Assembly (NCBI GenBank): GCA_036498835.1
Contig: DASYEV010000002.1
Location: 1,763-65,762 of the forward strand
DNA length: 64,000 bases
Direction: 5' to 3'
DNA from: Acidobacteriaceae bacterium
GTDB taxonomy: Bacteria; Acidobacteriota; Terriglobia; Terriglobales; Acidobacteriaceae
In this document: positions 21,950-33,239 of the stretch, in pieces
Numbering within the stretch: position 1 is the first letter of the stretch
Layout: each line of letters opens with the position of its first letter
Program-made: the position numbers and the translations under genes
Notes under the pieces: generated by a model
Told to the model about the DNA's origin: nothing
Seen by the model: the letters and a program-made list of their open reading frames with translations, nothing else
The model's database searches: none

Positions 21950-22168
21950 TCAGTTTGAATTTGATTGCAGACCCAGGTAGCGTCGCCCATTCCTGATCGC
22001 ATCAGCCACTAACATCAGTGCAATCAGGATGCCGACAATGGCGGGGCCATAGAACATCCAGGTAGGCCACCCGAACTGTGGGAGGAAGAACTGTCTAATA
22101 CCGACAACCAGCAAATAGGCGGCTATGAGCAGCTCAATCACTATTCTGAACATCACTTTCTTGTTCAT
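21950..22168 (-). CDS. Small hypothetical membrane protein (72 aa, two TM helices)
   Basis: Fills the gap between the GH5 gene and purF. Two hydrophobic stretches and a basic N-terminus. Confidence 0.55.
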   Translation of the reverse strand: MNKKVMFRIVIELLIAAYLLVVGIRQFFLPQFGWPTWMFYGPAIVGILIALMLVADAIRNGRRYLGLQSNSN

Positions 22169-22386
22169 GCCGACATGCTACCGCATCACATCTGTCGGAA
22201 CTGGAACCTCCGCGCTTCTTGGCTAGGCCCGGGTATTTGACCTACGACTGTCGAGACTTGATTTCAAACTGACCCCCCTTCCTGACTTTTCCTCACCGGA
22301 CATGAGACCATAGAGTTGGTGTTTTACGTTCCGGGGCCGCTTTTTCGCTCCGGGCAACGGTCGTCTCAAACAGGCAGCGAGGCAGA

Positions 22387-23898
22387 ATGTGCGGCATTGT
22401 CGGGGTCTTTGGACATAGCCCTGTAAGCCATGTGATTTATGAATCGCTCTCCATGCTCCAGCACCGTGGGCAGGATGCGGCCGGCATTGCTACATGCTTC
22501 GGCGAGCGGTTCTATCTTCATAAGGGCAATGGTCTTTTGACCGATGTCTTCGACGCCGGCAACATGGCCCGGCTGCTCGGCAATATGGGTATCGGCCACG
22601 TGCGTTATCCGACCGCAGGCTGCGCGTCGGTGGCGGAAGCCCAGCCGTTTTATGTGAATTCACCGCACGGCATCGTATTTGCTCACAACGGTAACCTCAC
22701 CAATGTTTCGGAAATCGTCGACAGCCTGTTCAAGACCGACCTCCGGCATCTGAACACGTCTTCAGATTCCGAGGTCATGCTGAACGTCTTCGCCCATGCC
22801 ATGACGCGGCGCGCGATGGTGACGCCCAATGAGCTGGATATCTTTGCCGCTGTCGAGGAAGTGCATCGCCGCTGCAAGGGCGGATACGCTGTGGTGGTGA
22901 TGATCGCCGGTGTGGGTATGGTGGCGTTCCGCGACCTGCATGGCATCCGCCCCCTGGTATTCGGCACGCGCGTGGAAAACGGCAAGACCGATTACATGAT
23001 CGCGTCCGAAAGCGTGGCCTTACAGGTCGCAGGCTTCAATATCGATCACGATCTTGCTCCGGGCGAAGTGGTCTTCATCGATATGGAAGGCGAGCTGCAT
23101 TCTCACTTGAGCCTGCTGGCGCATGAGAAGGCTCCCTGCATGTTCGAGTTCGTCTATCTGGCGCGGCCTGATTCCGTGCTTGATGGCGCCTCGGTCTATG
23201 AGGCTCGCATCAACATGGGCGCGAAGCTCGCGGCCAAGATCAAGCGCGAGTGGGCGCATCTCAAAATCGATGTGGTGGTGCCCATCCCATCGACCAGCCG
23301 CGTGGCTGCGCAGGAAATGGCGACGGTCCTGAACCTGCCCTATCGCGATGCGCTTGTACGCAACCGCTACGTGGGGCGCACGTTCATCATGCCGGGGCAG
23401 GCACAGCGCAGGCAGTCCATCCGCCGCAAGCTGAACCCGATTCCCCATGCATTCCAGGGCAAGAACGTGTTGCTGGTCGACGACTCGATTGTGCGCGGCA
23501 ACACCATCAAGGAAATCATTGCCATGGTCCGTGAGCAGGGCGCGAAGCATGTGTACGTATGCTCTGCTGCTCCTCCGGTGCTGTTTCCCAACGTGTACGG
23601 CATCGATATGCCGGCACGCTCGGAGCTGATTGCAAACGGCAAGGATATTCGCCAGCTTGCGGATCTCATCGGCGCCGACGAATTGATCTTCCAGGATTTG
23701 CAGGACCTGAAAGATGCTGTCACCGCAGCGTGCCCCGATCTGAAAGACTTTGACACATCCGTCTTCGATGGCCGTTATGTGACGGGTGATGTGACCGAAG
23801 AGTACCTTGCAACGCTGGAAAAGCAACGGAACGATGCCGCTAAGCACACAGAAGATGTCGCCAGCCATATCTCCAGAAACCTCTCCGCGCACCTCTGA
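22387..23898 (+). CDS. purF: Amidophosphoribosyltransferase (E. coli type, no propeptide)
   Basis: MCGIV (N-terminal nucleophile Cys), [36 protein letters not shown] and [13 protein letters not shown]. Confidence 0.96.
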
Positions 23899-23911
23899 AA
23901 ACGGTGTAACG

Positions 23912-26900
23912 GTGAGGCTGCTGCCTGGTCAGGCAGCACTGACCTCCTTTGAAGCCGCACGCCTCGCCGACAAGCTGCGTTCGCTGGACCCCGGCGTGCG
24001 CTCGGTGGACGCCCACTATCTCTACCTGCTTGCACTCCCCGAAGGCGCGGCGTCTCTGGATGCCGTAGACGAGCAACGCCTCGCCGAGCTTCTGGAGACG
24101 GGCGATGACATTCCCGCGGGTCCAAGTGTTTGGATAGCCCCGCGTACCGGTACGCAGTCGCCGTGGTCCAGCAAGGCAACCGACATCCTGCACAACACGG
24201 GCTTTGAGAGCGTTATGCGCATCGAACGTGCGCGCGTGGTGCGGATTGAGGGTGCAAGCGATGTGCGTGTGCTGGCAGGCGCCTTGCATGACCGCATGAC
24301 GGAAAGCGTGTTCTTCTCTGGCGCTGACGAACTGCGTGCTCTGTTTGCTCCACGGCATGGAAAGCCTTTGGCTCACATCGATGTGTTGGGTGAAGGCGCG
24401 GATGCGATTGCGAAGGCTGATCGCGATCTGGGCCTTTCGCTGGCAGCGGATGAAATCAACTATCTGGTCGCGGAGTTTCAGCGTTTGGGGCGCAATCCAA
24501 CCGATGTTGAGCTGTACATGTTCGCGCAGGCCAACAGCGAGCATTGCCGCCACAAAATCTTCAACGCGCAGTGGACCGTAGACGGCGTGAAGCAGGAACG
24601 CTCACTGTTCGGCATGATCCGCAATACGTATGAAACGCACAGCGAAGGCGTGCTTTCCGCGTACCGCGACAACGCGGCGGTGATGGAAGGTTGGCGCGGC
24701 GGGCGGTTCTTCCCCGAGCCTGGTGATGGGACGTATCGCTATCACCAGGAAGACATCGCCATCCTGATGAAGGTGGAAACCCACAACCACCCCACGGCAA
24801 TTTCGCCCTGGCCAGGCGCGGCCACGGGTTCAGGTGGAGAGATTCGAGATGAAGGGGCAACAGGCCGAGGCGGCAAGCCCAAGGCAGGGTTGAGTGGATT
24901 CACGGTTTCGAATTTGAACCTGCCCCAGGCGCCGCAGCCGTGGGAAAAGCACTACGGCAAGCCCGCGCACATCGCATCGCCGCTCGACATCATGATTGAA
25001 GGGCCGCTGGGTGCGGCGGCGTTCAACAACGAGTTCGGACGGCCCAATCTCTGCGGCTACTTCCGTACCTACGAGCAGTCGAGCGAAGGCCAGGTCTTCG
25101 GATATCACAAGCCCATCATGCTGGCAGGCGGCCTGGGCAACATTCGCAAGGAGCACGTTGAAAAGGGCACCATGAAGCCCGGATATGCCCTGGTGGTTCT
25201 GGGCGGTCCCGCGATGCTGATTGGTCTCGGAGGCGGTGCGGCCTCAAGCCAGGCAGGCGGCGGAAGCGGCAGCACGGATCTCGACTTCGCTTCCGTGCAG
25301 CGTGACAACGCGGAGATGGAGCGGCGAGCGCAGGAAGTCATCGATCACTGCTGGCAGCGTGGCGAGAAGAATCCGATTGCCTTCATTCATGACGTAGGCG
25401 CAGGTGGTCTGTCGAATGCGTTTCCTGAGCTGGTCAAAGATGGAGGCTGCGGTGGCACGTTTGATCTGCGTGCGATTCCACGTGGTGAAGAAGGCTTGAG
25501 CCCGCTTGAAACATGGTGCAACGAGGCGCAGGAGCGCTATGTGCTGGCGATTGCGCCCGACGATCTCCCGCTGTTTGAAGAGCTTTGCGCACGTGAACGC
25601 TGTCCGTTTGCGGTGATCGGCCATGCACAGAGTGAACCACACCTGACGCTCACTGATGGGGCGGAGAAGCCGATCGATCTCCCGCTGCAGGTATTGTTCG
25701 GCAAACCACCCAAGATGGAGCGGGCGTTTCAACGGGAGACGGCTGTTGTCTCAGCGCTCGACTGGAGTGGAGTAACAGTCGAAGACGCAGTGGAGCGTTT
25801 GCTGCGGCTGCCGGCGGTTGCGTCGAAATCGTTTCTCATCACGATCGGCGACCGCAGTGTCGGTGGCATGGTCGTGCAGGACCAGATGGTGGGGCCATGG
25901 CAAGTGCCGGTTGCCGACTGCGCTGTAACACTGTCCGCGTATGACGTGACCACCGGCGAAGCGATGGCCGTTGGCGAACGCACGCCCCTGGCAGTGACAG
26001 ACGCTGCGGCATCCGCACGCATGGCCGTGGGCGAGGTTGTGACCAACCTTGCGGGAGCGGCAATCGGCCAGCTTTCCGAGATCAAGCTTTCCGCCAACTG
26101 GATGGCCGCGGCTGGGCAGGGCAGGGAAGACCAGAAGCTCTTCGATGCGGTTCATGCGGTCGGCATGGAATTTTGTCCCGCGCTTGGACTGACGATTCCC
26201 GTCGGCAAAGATTCCATGTCGATGAAGACGCGCTGGCGCGATGGCGAAGACGACAGGTCGGTGATCGCGCCACTCTCGCTGATCATTTCTGGTTTTGCTC
26301 CGGTTGAAGATGTGCGCCGCACCTTGACGCCGCAGGTCACACAGGATGAGAACGCGCTGTTGCTGATTGATCTGGGCGAAGGCCGCAATCGTCTTGGAGG
26401 CTCGGCGCTCGCGCAGGTGTATGGGCAGGCCGGCGGCGAATGTCCGGACGCGCCCGAACCCGCGGTTTTGTCGCGCTTCTTTGCGGCGGTCCAGAAACTC
26501 AATCGCGAAGGAAAGCTCCTCGCGTATCACGACCGCAGCGACGGCGGATTGTTGGTCACGTTGGTGGAAATGGCCTTCGCCGGGCATACCGGTCTGGAGA
26601 TTGATCTTGCTGCGGCTTCTGGCGAGGGCGGGGTGCTCGCGCAGTTGTTCAGCGAAGAGTTGGGTGCGGTGGTCCAGGTTCGAGCAGACGAAGCGGACGC
26701 GATCCGCGCTGAACTGGAGAGCGCCGGCTTACATGCCGTTTCCGTTGGCCGAGCCGTGGTTGGGAATGACGCGGTCTTCTCGGCGGGTGGTGATGTTTTG
26801 TACCGGAGCACACGCTCAGGTCTGCAGAAAATCTGGGCGGAGACCAGCTTCCATATTCAGTCCCTGCGCGATAACCCGGAGAGCGCTCGGCAGGAGTTTG

Positions 26901-27736
26901 CCCTGCTGGAGCAGGTTGACCGGCCCGGGCTGTCGGTGACCGTTCCTTTCGATCTTGAGGAACGTGTGAGCGCGCCCTTCATGCATACGCAGCGGCCCAG
27001 AGTTGCCGTGCTGCGCGAGCAAGGCGTGAACGGCCAGGTTGAAATGGCTGCGGCATTCGATCGCGCTGGATTTACCGCGGTCGACGTCCACATGAGCGAC
27101 CTGCTGGCTGGGCGCGTGCATCTCCGCGATTTCAGCGGACTGGCGGCATGCGGCGGATTTTCCTATGGCGATGTGCTCGGCGCCGGCAGCGGATGGGCCA
27201 AGACCATCCTGTTCAACGCTCAGTTGAAAGACCAGTTCACCGAGTTCTTCCAACGCGACAACACATTTTCGTTGGGCGTATGCAATGGATGCCAGATGAT
27301 GGCGCAACTGCGCGACATTGTCCCCGGTGCTTCCGCTTGGCCCAGCTTCAAACGCAACACGTCCTCCCGCTATGAGGCACGGCTGTGCATGGTCGAGCTA
27401 CCGCACACGGCGTCGCTGTTCTTTGAGGGCATGGCAGGTTCGCGGGTTCCGATTGTGGTCGCCCACGGCGAAGGGCATGCAAGCGCGGAAGCTCCGGAGG
27501 CGATGATCGCGATGCGTTTCATCGATGGGTACGGACGGGTAACGCAGCACTATCCGTTGAACCCGAACGGATCGCCGAAGGGAATTGCGGGATTGACGAG
27601 CGAGGATGGGCGCGCTCTGATTGTGATGCCGCATCCTGAACGCGTTCATCTCGGTGTGCAGCACACGTGGACGCGCGCCTTGCGGGAAAGCCCCTGGCAG
27701 CGCATGTTCGACAACGCGCGCAAATGGGTGGGATAA
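23912..27736 (+). CDS. purL: Phosphoribosylformylglycinamidine synthase, large single-chain type
   Basis: About 1274 aa from GTG 23912. [40 protein letters not shown] and a fused glutaminase with GVCNGCQ and MPHPER. Confidence 0.96.
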
Positions 27737-27739
27737 GAC

Positions 27740-28798
27740 ATGAGTGAAACGATCGACTACAAGTCCGCGGGAGTGGACATTGAAGCAGGGAATGAAGCCG
27801 TCCGGCGCATGAAGCAGCATGTGGCCAAAACTCACCAGATCCACGGCTCCGCCGTGATCTCAGGGCTCGGTTCCTTTGGCACGCTGTTCTCGCTGAAAGA
27901 TGCGCTCGCAGGATTGAACGATCCGGTCATGGTGCAGAGCACGGACGGCGTCGGCACCAAGACCAAGGTGACGGTGATGGCTGGGCGTTATGAAGCGCTG
28001 GGCCGCGACCTGGTCGCCGCGGTTGCCGGCGACATCGCGGTGATGGGTGCGAAGCCGCTGACCTTCCTCGACTACCTTGGCCTGCACAAAACCGATCCGG
28101 CCATCGTGGAGCAGCTGGTGAAGGGCATGAGCGAAGCCTGCGCGGAAGCGGGCATTGCCCTGGTTGGTGGCGAGACCGCGGAGATGCCCGCCGTGTACTC
28201 GGAGGGCGAGCTCGACGTGGTTGGCTTTGTCACCGGTGTGGTGGAGCGCGAGAAGCTGATCACAGGCGCTGCGATCGCTTCGGGCGATGTGCTGTATGGC
28301 GTGAGTTCCAGCGGCCTGCATACCAACGGCTGGTCGCTGGCTCGCAAGCTCTTCTTCGAGATTGGCGGATACAAGATCGATGACGCTCCGGAAGAGCTTG
28401 GCGGCGCGACGCTTGCGGATGTCCTGCTGGAACCTCATGCGAATTATGTGATGGCGATTCGCCGCGCGCTTGATGCCGGGACTGCGATCAAGGGCATGGC
28501 GCATATCACCGGTGGTGGTCTGGTCGAGAACGTACCGCGCGTTCTGCCTGAAGGTCTGGGCGCGGTGGTCGAGCGCAAGACATGGACACCGCAGCCGGTG
28601 TTTGGCATGATGCAGCGGCTCGGCAATATCGGCGTTGAAGAGATGCACCGCGTCTTCAATATGGGTGTGGGCCTGGTTGTCATCGGTGAACCGGGTCTGC
28701 TGGATGGACTTCAGGCAGCGATGACGCCGTTCCGCGTGTGGGAGCTAGGACGAGTGGAAGCCGGTCTCGAAGGCGTGCTTTTGAAGGAGGTAGAGTGA
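27740..28798 (+). CDS. purM: AIR synthase (phosphoribosylformylglycinamidine cyclo-ligase)
   Basis: DYKSAGVDIEAGN, TDGVGTK, GGETAEMP, SSGLHTNG, AHITGGGL and FNMGVG. Confidence 0.96.
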   Translation: MSETIDYKSAGVDIEAGNEAVRRMKQHVAKTHQIHGSAVISGLGSFGTLFSLKDALAGLNDPVMVQSTDGVGTKTKVTVMAGRYEALGRDLVAAVAGDIAVMGAKPLTFLDYLGLHKTDPAIVEQLVKGMSEACAEAGIALVGGETAEMPAVYSEGELDVVGFVTGVVEREKLITGAAIASGDVLYGVSSSGLHTNGWSLARKLFFEIGGYKIDDAPEELGGATLADVLLEPHANYVMAIRRALDAGTAIKGMAHITGGGLVENVPRVLPEGLGAVVERKTWTPQPVFGMMQRLGNIGVEEMHRVFNMGVGLVVIGEPGLLDGLQAAMTPFRVWELGRVEAGLEGVLLKEVE

Positions 28799-29775
28799 TC
28801 GATCGTGAGGTTCTACTCGAGGCCATTGCTCACTGCCTGACGGAAAGCAATCTGCCACTGCCTGCGAAGTATGCGGGCAAGGTGCGCGACACTTATGATC
28901 TCGATCCGGGCAAACCTCAGGGTCGCCTGCTGCTGGTAACAACCGACCGGCAGAGCGGATTCGACCGCATGCTGGGCGCGATTCCGTACAAGGGCCAGGT
29001 GCTGAACCGCACGTCGTTGTACTGGTTTGAGCAAACGAAGAACATCATCGCCAACCATGTCATCGGAAGCCCGCATGCGAATGCATTGCTGGCGCGCAAG
29101 TGCCGTGTGCTGCCGATTGAATTTGTGGTCCGCGGGTATATGACCGGGTCGACGGATACCTCGATCTGGACGCAGTACGCCAAGGGCGCGCGGCAGTATT
29201 GCGGCCACGTACTGCCGGAAGGCATGAGCAAGAATCAGCCGCTTCCGCACAACCTGGTTACGCCGACCACGAAGGAAAAGCTGCATGACCGGCCCATCAC
29301 CGCGGAAGAGATTGTTGCCGAAGGTTGGCTGACGAAGGATGAGTGGGAGTTTGCTTCGACGAAGGCGCTGGAGCTGTTTACTTTTGGACAGCGGCTGGCG
29401 GCAGAACGCGGTTTGATCCTCGTCGACACCAAGTACGAGTTTGGCGTGGATTCGGACGGCAACATTCTGCTCATCGATGAGATCCATACGCCCGATTCAA
29501 GCCGCTACTGGCTGGCTGGAACCTATGCCATGCGGCTGGCGGAAGGCAAAGAGCCGGACATGATCGACAAGGAGTTCTTCCGGTTGTGGTTCCGTGAGCG
29601 CTGCGACCCGTATAAGGACCCGGTGCTGCCTACACCGCCGGATGATCTGATCGCGGAACTGGCATCACGTTACATACTGCTGTTTGAGACCATCACCGGA
29701 CAGGCGTTTGAACCCGATCTCCGGCCCCTGGATGCGACCGTGCTGGCGGCTCTGCAGGCGGACGCTTCGGAATGA
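28795..29775 (+). CDS. purC: SAICAR synthase
   Basis: GKVRDTY, TDRQSGFD, IPYKGQVLN, VDTKYEFG and DEIHTPDSSRYW. GTG start overlaps the purM stop after an AAGGAGG RBS. Confidence 0.95.
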   Translation: MIDREVLLEAIAHCLTESNLPLPAKYAGKVRDTYDLDPGKPQGRLLLVTTDRQSGFDRMLGAIPYKGQVLNRTSLYWFEQTKNIIANHVIGSPHANALLARKCRVLPIEFVVRGYMTGSTDTSIWTQYAKGARQYCGHVLPEGMSKNQPLPHNLVTPTTKEKLHDRPITAEEIVAEGWLTKDEWEFASTKALELFTFGQRLAAERGLILVDTKYEFGVDSDGNILLIDEIHTPDSSRYWLAGTYAMRLAEGKEPDMIDKEFFRLWFRERCDPYKDPVLPTPPDDLIAELASRYILLFETITGQAFEPDLRPLDATVLAALQADASE

Positions 29776-31094
29776 AAGAAGCGATTCTCATTGTCGGCTC
29801 GGGAGCGCGTGAGCATGCCATCGCTGCGTCGCTGGCGCGGTCTCCGCAGAAGCCCGACCTGCTTTGTTTCGGCGCCACGCGCAATCCCGGGATCGAACCG
29901 CTTTGCCGCGCGTATGCGACGGGCAGCGTGACCGATGCCAAAGCGATTGTGACCTTCGCCGGGTTGCACAACGCAACGCTGGCGGTCATCGGGCCGGAAG
30001 CTCCGCTGGCTGCGGGTGTTGCCGACGCGTTGTGGGCCGCGAATGTACCGGTTGTGGGGCCACGTGAGAAGCTCGCCCAGATTGAAGCCAGCAAGAGCTT
30101 CACACGCGAGCTGCTGGTGAAGTACGGGATTCCCGGCAACCCCTTCTTCCAGCGGTTTGAGTCCATGCATAGCGTGGAGGATGTGCTGACGCGCTATGCC
30201 GCACAACACGTAGTGAAGGATGACGGCCTCGCCGGTGGCAAGGGCGTGAAGGTCTGGGGCGATCATCTGCTCACCCACGAAGACTCGGTTGCGTATTGCC
30301 AGGAACTCGCTGAAGCCGGACGCCCTTTTGTTATCGAAGAGAAACTCGAAGGCGAAGAGTTCTCGCTGCTGAGCTTCTGTGATGGCACTACGTTGCGTCA
30401 CATGCCTGCCGTCCAGGACCACAAGCGCGCCTATGAAGGCGACAAGGGGCCGAACACCGGTGGCATGGGGACATATACCGATGCCGATGGCAAGCTTCCG
30501 TTCCTGACGCAAGCGGATATTGAAGCGGCTCAGAGCATCAACGAGCGTGTGGTGAAAGCGCTGGCGGAGGAGTGCGGCGCTCCGTATCAGGGCTTTCTGT
30601 ATGGCGGATTTATGGCCACACGCGATGGCGTTCGCCTGATTGAATACAACGCACGCTTTGGCGACCCCGAAGCTTTGAATCTCCTTACGCTTCTCGAAAC
30701 GGATTTTGTCGCGGTCTGCCGTGCCATTGTGGATGGAACACTCGGCGAAGTGCCGGTTACGTTCGCGCCGCAGGCCAGCGTCTGCAAATACGTGGTGCCG
30801 GAAGGCTATCCGGTAGATACTCGCCAGGGAGACGCAGTGGTGATGCCGCAAGGGATTCCCGACAACGTGACAACGTATTTCGGTGGTGTGATCGAGAAGA
30901 ACGGCGGTCTGGTCGTGGCCGGGACGCGCGCGGTTGGTTTTGTAGGTCGCGCTGCAACCATTGCGGAAGCGGAAGCATTGTGCGAGCGCTTCGCCGCACA
31001 GGTACCGGGAAGATTCTTCCATCGCACCGACATCGGGACGGAAGCTGCCATTGCAAATCGCGTAGCGCACATGCGCACATTGAGGCAGGCATGA
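29772..31094 (+). CDS. purD: Phosphoribosylamine--glycine ligase
   Basis: GSGAREHA, IGPEAPL, GLAGGKGV, EEKLEGEEFS, QDHKRAYEGDKGPNTGGMG and EYNARFGDPE. Confidence 0.96.
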   Translation: MKEAILIVGSGAREHAIAASLARSPQKPDLLCFGATRNPGIEPLCRAYATGSVTDAKAIVTFAGLHNATLAVIGPEAPLAAGVADALWAANVPVVGPREKLAQIEASKSFTRELLVKYGIPGNPFFQRFESMHSVEDVLTRYAAQHVVKDDGLAGGKGVKVWGDHLLTHEDSVAYCQELAEAGRPFVIEEKLEGEEFSLLSFCDGTTLRHMPAVQDHKRAYEGDKGPNTGGMGTYTDADGKLPFLTQADIEAAQSINERVVKALAEECGAPYQGFLYGGFMATRDGVRLIEYNARFGDPEALNLLTLLETDFVAVCRAIVDGTLGEVPVTFAPQASVCKYVVPEGYPVDTRQGDAVVMPQGIPDNVTTYFGGVIEKNGGLVVAGTRAVGFVGRAATIAEAEALCERFAAQVPGRFFHRTDIGTEAAIANRVAHMRTLRQA

Positions 31095-31666
31095 ATCTCA
31101 AGGTAGGTGTGCTGGGTTCAACACGTGGCACTGCGCTTGCGGGCGTGATCGATGCAATCGAAGTCGGTGACCTGGACGTTGAGATTGTTCTGATCGTTTC
31201 CGACAAAGCGACCGCTCCGATCCTGCAGCGCGCGGCGAAACATGGGCTGCAGGCACGGTACATCGATCCGGCGGGGTTGACGCGCGAGGAGTATGACGCG
31301 GAAGTCACCAAGGCGTTGCGTGTCGCGGGTGTCGAACTTGTGCTGCTGGTCGGCTATATGCGCATCGTTTCGGACAGCTTCGTCGAGGCGTGGCGCGGAC
31401 GCATGCTGAATGTTCATCCGTCGCTGCTACCGGCGTTCGGCGGCCTCATGAACAAGAAGGTGCATGAGGCGGTGCTGGCCAGTGGCGTTACCGAAACCGG
31501 ATGCACCATCCATCAGGTGACGGAAGAAGTCGATGGCGGTGAGATCGTATTGCAGAAGCGCTGTGCGGTGCTTCCCGGTGATACGGTGGATACGTTGAAA
31601 GACCGCGTGCAGGCGCTGGAGCAGGAAGCGTTTGTGGAAGTCTTGCGTACTTGGAGGGCGGAGTGA
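31091..31666 (+). CDS. purN: Phosphoribosylglycinamide formyltransferase
   Basis: [23 protein letters not shown] and [17 protein letters not shown] at 31091. Confidence 0.94.
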
Positions 31667-32160
31667 CCCAGGAAGCTGTTGTAGTAGGCATCGTCATGGG
31701 ATCGCGCTCGGATTGGGCGACGATGCAGGCGGCCGCGACGATGCTGGATGAACTAGGCGTCCGTTATGAGGCCGAAGTTGTCTCGGCGCATCGCACCCCC
31801 GACAAGATGATGCAGTATGCGGAAGCCGCCGAGTCCCGCGGCCTGAAGGTCATCATTGCCGGCGCAGGCGGGGCAGCGCATCTGCCCGGAATGATTGCCG
31901 CCAAGACCCGCCTTCCTGTACTGGGTGTTCCGGTGAAGAGCGAGGCGCTGAACGGGCTCGACAGCCTGCTGTCCATTGTGCAGATGCCGGGTGGAGTGCC
32001 CGTCGCGACCTTTGCCATCGGTGTAGCGGGAGCGAAGAATGCAGGGCTGTTTGCCGCGGGCATTCTGGCGCTGCAGGATGAGACGTTGGCGAAGAAGCTC
32101 CAGGCATTTCGCGATACTCAAACCGAAACTGTACTTGCGAGCTCCGATCCACGCGCATGA
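31663..32160 (+). CDS. purE: N5-CAIR mutase
   Basis: [24 protein letters not shown] and [16 protein letters not shown] at 31663. Confidence 0.96.
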
Positions 32161-33239
32161 AGGACGAGTCGCCGCAGCGTGTGGGGATATTGGGCGCGGG
32201 CCAACTCGCGCTCATGCTGGCGCAGGCGTCCGAACGGCTCGATCTTGAAGTGCTGTGCGCAGGCCAGGACGGCGACTGTGCGGAACAGGCTGCGCCGGTA
32301 CTGCAGGTTGAGTTGAATCGCGCGGCGGAAGTTGCGGCGTTTGCGAAACGCGCCGATTTGGTTACGGTCGAAAGCGAAAACATCGATGCCTCCGTACTGC
32401 ATGGCCTGGAGCTTTATCCGAATGCCCACGCCATCGGCATTGCCCAGGACCGTCTGCTGGAAAAGCGCTTTTTTGGGCAATGCGGCATCCAGGTAGCTCC
32501 GTTTGCCGCAGTCGATTCGCTCGATGATCTGAAGCAGGCACTCGCCCAGATTGGTTTGCCCGCAATCCTCAAGACGCGCCGCATGGGTTATGACGGCAAA
32601 GGCCAGGTTCGGCTTCAACACCTTGAAGAAGCTGCGGGTGCCTGGGATGCAGTCGATCAGGTGCCTTCCATTCTGGAAGGGATGGTGCGGTTCGATACGG
32701 AAGTGTCGATGATCGCGGTTCGCGGCCGCACGGGCGACACGGCGTTCTATCCACTGGTTGAAAACTTCCATCGTGATGGCATCCTGCGAAAGTCCATCGC
32801 GCCCTACGCTCGCGCATCCGAATTGCAGGAGCAGGCGGAAGCCTACCTGCGTGTTCTGCTGGAACAGTTGGAGTACGTCGGCGTCTTGACGGTCGAGTTC
32901 TTTGTGCAGGGTGAGCGGTTGATTGCCAATGAGATGGCGCCGCGTGTGCACAACTCCGGCCACTGGACCATTGAGGGATCGGTCTCTTCGCAGTTCGAAA
33001 ACCATCTTCGCGCCATTGCCGGACTTCCGTTGGGAAGCACGGAAAGCCTGCCCATGGTCATGCTCAACTGCATTGGCTGGATGCCGCCTTTGGCGGAGAC
33101 GGAAGGGTGCCCTTCGCTGCTGCGCCACGACTACGGCAAAGACCCGCGACCCGGACGCAAGGTTGGACATCTCACCTTTCCCGCTTCTGCGGAGAAGGAC
33201 ATTGCGGAGTGGGAAGCGCGCCTGGCGCAGCATGGTTAA
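32157..33239 (+). CDS. purK: N5-CAIR synthase
   Basis: [50 protein letters not shown] and RPGRKVGH. Confidence 0.95.

Follow-up and report, generated by a model that had tools for sequence, protein, structure and literature searches.

A Francisella-type purFLMCDNEK operon has probably replaced the native genes for early purine biosynthesis in a genus of Acidobacteriaceae

Gene content of the operon

The window analyzed here, a stretch of 64,000 nucleotides from an Acidobacteriaceae bacterium (GenBank assembly GCA_036498835.1, contig DASYEV010000002.1, positions 1,763 to 65,762), contains eight tightly packed open reading frames (ORFs) on the forward strand at positions 22387-33239, in the order purF-purL-purM-purC-purD-purN-purE-purK (Table 1). 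Together they correspond to steps 1-7 of de novo purine synthesis, from phosphoribosyl pyrophosphate (PRPP) to succinylaminoimidazole carboxamide ribonucleotide (SAICAR). All eight products scored above the curated NCBIfam equivalog cut-offs and were matched over their full length. The ORF and NCBIfam analyses agreed with a preliminary description of this DNA in the gene order, the tight coupling and the five 4-nt ATGA/GTGA overlaps. Gene starts were picked from hidden Markov model (HMM) alignments and from homologs in the same genus, and both GTGA overlaps hinge on the choice of start; purE has an alternative TTG start at 31651, 12 nt upstream. The gene overlaps suggest that the eight genes are co-transcribed. 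The purB and purH genes, which had been noted as missing from the cluster, were located with family models on other contigs (C117 and C50, respectively).

Table 1. Features of the purine biosynthesis locus, in window coordinates
Feature	Coordinates	Strand	Description	Model match	Junction with next gene
purF	22387..23898	+	amidophosphoribosyltransferase, cluster-free E. coli type	TIGR01134, 481.8 bits	13-nt gap
purL	23912..27736	+	single-chain (large) formylglycinamidine ribonucleotide (FGAM) synthetase, GTG start	NF003672, 1948 bits, profile 3-1290 of 1290	3-nt gap
purM	27740..28798	+	aminoimidazole ribonucleotide (AIR) synthetase	TIGR00878, 344 bits	4-nt overlap, GTGA
purC	28795..29775	+	SAICAR synthetase, separate ORF	NF009251 (PRK12607) subtype, 402 bits	4-nt overlap, ATGA; ORFs in different frames
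purD	29772..31094	+	glycinamide ribonucleotide (GAR) synthetase, non-classical clade (with Francisella PurCD fusions, Legionella and eukaryote-like fusions)	TIGR00877, 397.6 bits	4-nt overlap, ATGA
purN	31091..31666	+	GAR formyltransferase	TIGR00639, 174 bits	4-nt overlap, GTGA
purE	31663..32160	+	N5-carboxyaminoimidazole ribonucleotide (N5-CAIR) mutase, class I-type SAHRTP loop	TIGR01162, 222.8 bits	4-nt overlap, ATGA
purK	32157..33239	+	N5-CAIR synthetase	NF004679, 391.6 bits	
purF leader	22169..22386	+	without recognized regulatory RNA or conserved motif		
72-aa ORF	21950..22168	-	hydrophobic, between the GH5 gene and the purF leader; no Pfam match		

Enzyme types

Analysis of the encoded enzymes showed that several were of a different type from those native to the family. 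The native acidobacterial PurF has a propeptide of 9-11 residues and four conserved cysteines at the [4Fe-4S] ligand columns, which we take to be Fe-S ligands from what is established for B. subtilis PurF. The PurF in the window starts with MCGIVG, without a propeptide as first described, and has V/N/D/V at the four cysteine columns; the PurF proteins of Francisella, Stutzerimonas, and Grimontia have the same M-C start and the same four residues. The early assignment of PurL to the large single-chain type was borne out by its full-length match; PurL, PurQ, and PurS have given way to one polypeptide. The PurC of sister genera is of the NF010568 subtype, while that of the window, of Francisella, and of the Francisella relative L206 (described below) is of the NF009251 subtype. 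The native Acidobacteriaceae set covers the same pathway steps and has orthologous purH and purB (63-72% identity), but differs in its dispersed genes, its Fe-S/propeptide PurF, its split PurL, its NF010568 PurC, and its classical PurD.

PurK scored above the HMM cut-off in 3 of 3 genomes of the genus, as opposed to 2 of 14 sister genera. The purE and purK genes overlap, and PurE has a SAHRTP-type 40s loop, which presumably marks class I; class I-type activity is predicted for this PurE. The 12 other Acidobacteriaceae genera without PurK by HMM (among G331-G343 and G181) nevertheless have a PurE encoded adjacent to purD (for example L130, G334:C1:2850900-2853500). This PurE has a class-I-like SAHRSP loop and a 70s loop reading AAHLAGV in place of AAHLPGM. 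Its sequences make up a highly divergent clade (100/97, with a branch of approximately 1.7). A class II-like PurE and PurK-independent formation of N5-CAIR are both candidates for AIR carboxylation in these genera. In sister Acidobacteriaceae (for example G338:C86:11515-12273), purS was found directly upstream of a gene for a 625-650-aa glutamine amidotransferase, probably glmS, and not beside purQ or purL.

Copy number and loss of native genes

The genome containing the window (6.7 Mb in 261 contigs, 99.97% complete) was searched by tblastn with all eight proteins, and each of the eight pur genes was found at a single locus. There was no match anywhere in the genome to a small PurL, to PurQ, or to a second PurL; FGAM synthetase is one full-length polypeptide that combines a PurS-like N-domain, the synthetase and a C-terminal glutaminase, and neither purQ nor purS occurs as a gene of its own. 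The PurS model matched all 14 of the sister genera searched in this family but none of nine genomes of the genus, this one included. Synteny with the sister genus represented by genome G334 was mostly scrambled, and the purC site alone was informative. In G334, purC lies between genes of 1294 aa and 173 aa; the homologs of these two genes are neighbors on contig C217 of the genome studied here, where they flank an unrelated lipoprotein-like ORF and no remnant of purC is left. Of the two possibilities offered in the preliminary description, a second copy or a xenologous replacement, the second copy was rejected because every pur gene is single-copy, while the loss of PurS and the empty purC site favor replacement. 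The operon is the only present route to SAICAR in the genus.

Distribution of the operon

The genus, a GTDB genus-level group in the family Acidobacteriaceae, is probably Terracidiphilus; the sources of close PurL relatives were named 'Terracidiphilus sp.', 'Acidobacteriaceae bacterium', and 'Acidobacteriota bacterium'. The large PurL was found in all 18 genomes of the genus (68-81% identity), and the operon was collinear in eight of eight genus loci examined over 20 kb, complete chromosomes included. The best 120 PurL clusters were all genus members and gave no outgroup information. An assembly or binning artefact, in which a proteobacterial contig was misplaced in an acidobacterial genome, might be suspected in a draft of so many contigs, but its probability is negligible: the operon lies within a 77-kb contig of uniform composition, the genomes would have no steps 1-7 without it, and the artefact is already refuted by the single-contig complete chromosomes of the genus that carry the operon (G003, G015, and G018).

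Outside the genus, the large PurL was absent from 20 genomes of 9 other genera of the family, and 22 other Acidobacteriaceae genera lacked the operon. In the neighboring family, 12 of 12 genomes had a small PurL next to PurQ, with local identities of 26-39% (26-29% for the split PurL). Across the phylum, just 29 of the 301 sampled genomes contained a large PurL, in keeping with the preliminary description, by which Acidobacteriota usually use the split form. The dispersed pur loci that it ascribes to them were seen in 14 sister genera, where purF and purC stand alone and purM-purN and purD-purE form pairs.

Single-chain PurL proteins encoded by stand-alone genes were found in other families of Acidobacteriota (loci L022-L030, in genomes G074, G300, G088, G246, G326, G219, G062, G114, and G032). 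These were 55-57% and 39-43% identical to the window PurL and belonged to at least two further clades, one near the Betaproteobacteria and one very distant (39-43%); one of the sequences near the Betaproteobacteria paired with a Myxococcales metagenome-assembled genome (support 97). Single-chain PurL appears to have entered the Acidobacteriota several times independently. These proteins were rejected as the source of the operon, because their purL genes are solitary and they fall in separate clades.

The seven non-PurL proteins were compared, as a concatenated query, with 14 genera of the family, and control proteins were compared with the same 14 genomes (Table 2). From within the genus to the family, identity dropped by 30-45 points for the operon, versus approximately 10 for the vertically inherited controls.

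Table 2. Amino acid identity of operon and control proteins to those of sister genera and of the same genus
Protein	Sister genera	Within genus
PurF	36-40%	73-86%
PurL	26-29% (split type)	68-78%
PurM	45-50%	69-75%
PurC	36-41%	69-79%
PurD	32-38%	63-71%
PurN	35-43%	65-81%
PurE	53-63%	68-78%
PurK	match in only 2 of 14 genera	62-70%
PurH (control)	63-67%	71-76%
PurB (control)	64-72%	75-81%
GuaA (control)	68-72%	80-86%
PyrG (control)	77-86%	84-91%
RecA (control)	76-86%	89-92%

Phylogeny

Phylogenetic trees were inferred with IQ-TREE, using LG+C20 with posterior mean site frequencies (PMSF) for single genes, and the approximately unbiased (AU) test was used to ask whether the data reject the Acidobacteriota as one clade for seven genes (all but PurL) and for the concatenate. 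Support values given in this text are starred in the trees unless they are called unstarred, or, for pairs, the second value of the pair is. In all eight gene trees the genus was placed apart from other Acidobacteriota and with Francisella-type genomes. The PurL tree had the genus as a monophyletic group (100) nested in the Gammaproteobacteria (96/98, both starred) and sister to Francisella (Shimodaira-Hasegawa-like approximate likelihood ratio test 94, unstarred). In the PurF tree the genus belonged to a proteobacterial clade set against all Acidobacteriota (100/100) and was sister to Francisella (94/92, unstarred; AU p=0.009). There are two Francisella-type groups, Francisella itself and a second group with a Legionella layout, and the genus formed a clade with both for PurM (100/100; AU p=6e-5) and with the Francisella-type groups for PurN (100/98; AU p=5e-5). 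PurC was sister to that of Francisella (99/99; AU p=8e-57), PurE formed a clade with Francisella (100/98), and PurK fell weakly with the Francisella types (82/88, unstarred; AU p=2e-4).

The PurD tree was split into two sides. The genus was in a non-classical clade (100/100; AU p=0.002) together with Francisella, the second group, a spirochaete PurD-PurN fusion, and eukaryote-like fusions, and the classical side contained typical Proteobacteria, sister Acidobacteriaceae, and other Acidobacteriota. Grouping with Francisella was thus starred for PurM, PurC, PurN, PurE, and, at the level of the clade, PurD, and unstarred for PurF, PurL, and PurK; acidobacterial monophyly was rejected for six of the seven genes tested (PurF, PurM, PurC, PurD, PurN, and PurK). 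In the concatenate of 3,645 columns the genus joined Francisella (98/97) and then the second group (100/100), with the Acidobacteriota apart (100/100), and forcing the Acidobacteriota together cost 740 log-likelihood units (AU p=2e-4). When L206 and Legionella were added, Francisella and L206 grouped together (100/100) and the three-way clade with the genus kept its 100/100 support.

The horizontal acquisition proposed in the preliminary description is in agreement with all eight trees and with the AU rejections. That description had also named what would speak for vertical inheritance, namely that the operon be the norm in the lineage and that its proteins branch with acidobacterial orthologs; within the genus the operon is indeed the norm, whereas in the family it is not, and the proteins do not branch with acidobacterial orthologs. 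Vertical descent would require that the operon was present in the acidobacteriaceous ancestor beside the dispersed set and was then lost in all other genera. The universal presence of the operon within the genus, and a composition indistinguishable from that of the genome, would fit such a history. It is nonetheless improbable in the extreme, because the operon-free genera of the family would call for many independent losses, acidobacterial monophyly was rejected for six genes and the concatenate, PurF and PurL nest inside the Gammaproteobacteria, and identity falls so much further than in the controls.

The reverse direction, with an origin of the operon in the acidobacterial genus and its later passage to the Francisella lineage, was also considered. 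The Francisella PurL groups with the acidobacterial genus and not with Cysteiniphilum or Piscirickettsia, as it might if Francisella had been the recipient. However, the PurF and PurL clades that hold both are embedded in the Gammaproteobacteria, the PurM, PurC, PurD, PurN, PurE, and PurK types are common to a broad assemblage of Francisella, L206, and Legionella-layout genomes, all other Acidobacteriota carry different types, and the two clades are reciprocally monophyletic (100/100 each), which makes reverse transfer very unlikely.

The placement of Francisella among its own relatives showed a related pattern. The PurL and PurF of Francisella (loci L118 and L120) did not group with those of its taxonomic neighbors Cysteiniphilum and Piscirickettsia (L082, L092, and L102), and Cysteiniphilum has a classical PurD and a PurM, at 35-40% identity to the window. 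The Francisella-type pur set may itself have been transferred within the Gammaproteobacteria.

Comparison with Francisella, L206, and Legionella-layout genomes

Among the matches listed, which included no member of the genus, the named species genomes closest in PurL were all Pseudomonadota (53-60%), at identities equal to or above those of the other acidobacterial large PurL proteins (55-57% and 39-43%). The PurF of named gammaproteobacteria was also 53-60% identical to that of the window, compared with 36-42% for any acidobacterium, and their PurM, PurC, PurD, and PurN reached only 31-47%. Typical gammaproteobacteria were therefore rejected as the donor: PurF and PurL fit, and the other four proteins do not. 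Exhaustive comparison of PurD with 1.84 billion representatives gave best identities of 47-53%, with many fusion proteins among the matches, and the top match was a 769-aa PurC-PurD fusion from 'Francisellaceae bacterium CB300'. No closer donor was found in this search or in the neighborhood of the Francisella PurCD proteins, where identity reached a plateau at approximately 54%.

In the taxonomic order to which Cysteiniphilum belongs, 14 of the 25 genomes sampled had purM-purC·purD-purN-purE-purK arranged exactly as in the window; the group with this arrangement is named Francisella/Allofrancisella. Its proteins were 54-59% (PurM), 52-55% (PurC and PurD together), 44-47% (PurN), 62-70% (PurE), and 47-50% (PurK) identical to those of the window. 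In complete genomes of the group, purF-purL forms a second, distant cluster, so that the layout given in the preliminary description, purF-purL plus purM-purCD-purN-purE-purK, is the one observed. A 'purMCDN operon' is documented in F. tularensis (PMC2429968). Francisella resembles the window in the internal order of both clusters, with purF directly upstream of purL, and in its cluster-free PurF, single-chain PurL, NF009251-type PurC, and non-classical PurD; it was the nearest relative in the PurC and PurE trees and in one concatenated tree. Unlike the window, with its single contiguous operon of overlapping genes, Francisella has two clusters, and its purCD is a fused ORF of 769-780 aa. The suggestion that the order in the window equals the Francisella clusters joined end to end thus holds for the order, but not for purC and purD, which are separate here. 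Identities to Francisella are only 44-71%, and the host of the window is a high-GC soil acidobacterium.

A closer arrangement was found in L206, a relative of Francisella with a 1.79-Mb genome of 35.5% GC (ENA ERZ25073828, contig_1:1638232-1659560), which has all eight pur genes contiguous and in the exact order of the window. As in the window, they are on one strand, purC and purD are unfused, and purN, purE, and purK abut; the intergenic gaps are longer, at 9-116 nt. The L206 proteins are 46-66% identical to those of the window and 49-73% identical to those of Francisella, and in the tree they belong with Francisella (100/100) rather than with the genus of the window. The L206 order suggests that the two clusters and the purCD fusion of Francisella are derived states. 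Immediately downstream of the L206 operon, the opposite strand carries a fragment that has an ADSL_C (purB-like) domain.

The Legionella-layout genomes (L. moravica, L207; 'group 2' of the Francisella-type order) have PurM, PurC, PurD, and PurN clades related to those of Francisella and the acidobacterial genus (100/100). They differ from the window in their order, small purL-purM-purQ-purC-purF-purD-purN, in their split PurL, and in a PurF that keeps three of the four cysteine columns.

These arrangements bear on whether the operon arrived at once. It could have been assembled from at least two separate transfers (for example purF-purL and purM-purC-purD-purN-purE-purK) that were joined later in the ancestor of the genus. 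Francisella proper holds two distant clusters, and PurF and PurL fall among sequences of typical gammaproteobacteria (53-60%) while PurM, PurC, PurD, and PurN belong to a clade shared with the split-PurL Legionella-layout genomes, as separate origins would predict. We consider this unlikely, since the contiguous order with unfused purC and purD already exists in L206 and all eight trees give the same neighbors at similar relative distances.

The PurD and PurC subtypes of the operon are also related to eukaryotic forms (P0123, P0125, P0126, P0313, and P0402). The matches included fusions of GARS-AIRS(-GART) length and one hit to a eukaryote transcriptome, and plant SAICAR synthetases were 54-58% identical to Francisella PurC.

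Composition and flanking regions

GC content was flat across the window at approximately 0.60. The GC, GC at third codon positions (GC3), and codon-usage distance of each operon gene did not stand out from the bulk of the 3,252 long ORFs in the genome, and the operon as a whole ranked at the 93rd percentile among random gene sets of 11 kb. Codon usage had been proposed as a check of foreignness, and by that check the operon is ordinary; the description of it as apparently foreign holds for its phylogeny, but not for its composition. Composition thus lends no support to a recent transfer.

The flanking genes encode OEP, GH5, amine oxidase, and RidA proteins. The hydrophobic 72-aa ORF upstream of the purF leader (Table 1) was not seen beside the operon in other genus members. 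The leader matched no Rfam family, and the single sub-threshold match, inside purL, was attributable to chance. No promoter-like site was found upstream of purF, as promoter and terminator scans did not exceed the expectation from shuffled sequence, and conservation of the leader across the genus was limited to a GAGG ribosome-binding site and the start codon.

Origin of the operon

We consider it quite likely, from the sequence comparisons, that a functional operon of the Francisella-lineage type replaced the native genes for steps 1-7 of purine synthesis at the stem of the genus. The operon would have entered the common ancestor of the genus by horizontal transfer, with a gammaproteobacterial relative of the Francisella lineage as donor, most likely as a single block because L206 has the same contiguous order. 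The dispersed native genes, encoding the Fe-S/propeptide PurF, PurL with PurQ and PurS, PurM-PurN, PurC, and PurD-PurE, have been lost. The analyses show the identity and single-copy state of the operon genes, their restriction to the genus, this loss of the native set and the phylogenetic affinity, whereas transfer as one block, its direction and co-transcription are inferred. Afterwards the operon would have been inherited vertically and become fully adapted to the base composition of its host, with purB and purH remaining native. The transfer is probably old, dating to the genus stem, because composition and codon usage are fully ameliorated and the operon is present genus-wide.

Several observations weigh against this interpretation. 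No compositional signature of foreignness was found in GC, GC3, or codon distance, and there were no integrase, transposase, or other mobile-element genes in the operon flanks, although an old, ameliorated transfer would be compatible with both results. Comparison of the GH5-to-oxidase interval, which had been proposed as a check, showed no conserved insertion site, as both flanks and leader vary among genus members. PurE alone does not reject acidobacterial monophyly (AU p=0.096), and the PurD tree shows no specific sister relationship between the genus and Francisella inside the non-classical clade. In the concatenate, support for the sister relationship with Francisella falls from 98/97 to 81/78 (unstarred) upon inclusion of L206 and Legionella. 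Francisella, L206, and several other rows of the alignment deviate in amino acid composition and are long-branched, so long-branch attraction could lie behind the Francisella affinity. Finally, the named proteobacterial genomes compared were those among the matches listed, and the best outside identities, at only 46-66%, do not pinpoint an actual donor; identities of approximately 55% at best mean that the true donor either lies outside the sample or diverged long ago.

Implications

If the replacement took place as proposed, enzymes of an essential pathway that are usually taken as vertical markers were swapped in one or very few strokes from a distant phylum, with the loss of at least nine native genes. 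Such enzymes, and the wholesale exchange of a pathway by transfer, are of known kinds; the case is clean, not unprecedented. No prior report of this pur operon replacement was found in the searchable literature. The Pur proteins should not be relied on for phylogenetic placement or binning of this genus, since they would read as gammaproteobacterial, and the eight-gene order is a handy synapomorphy for spotting the genus in metagenomes.

The genus also offers a natural experiment in xenologous operon displacement, in which the recipient clade is a single genus, the sister genera are unaffected, and the enzymes are qualitatively changed. The benefit may have come from shedding an oxygen-labile Fe-S PurF, from merging three PurL subunits, or from gaining PurK. 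A broader and more doubtful possibility is that purFLMCDNEK is a self-sufficient 'pathway cassette' that has moved between soil Acidobacteria and Francisella/Legionella-like gammaproteobacteria that live in water or in association with amoebae, and that it was fixed through changed physiology: an oxygen-insensitive, iron-free PurF, a one-subunit PurL, and ATP-driven carboxylation by PurK. If so, the operon may have aided the ecological success of an abundant forest-soil genus.

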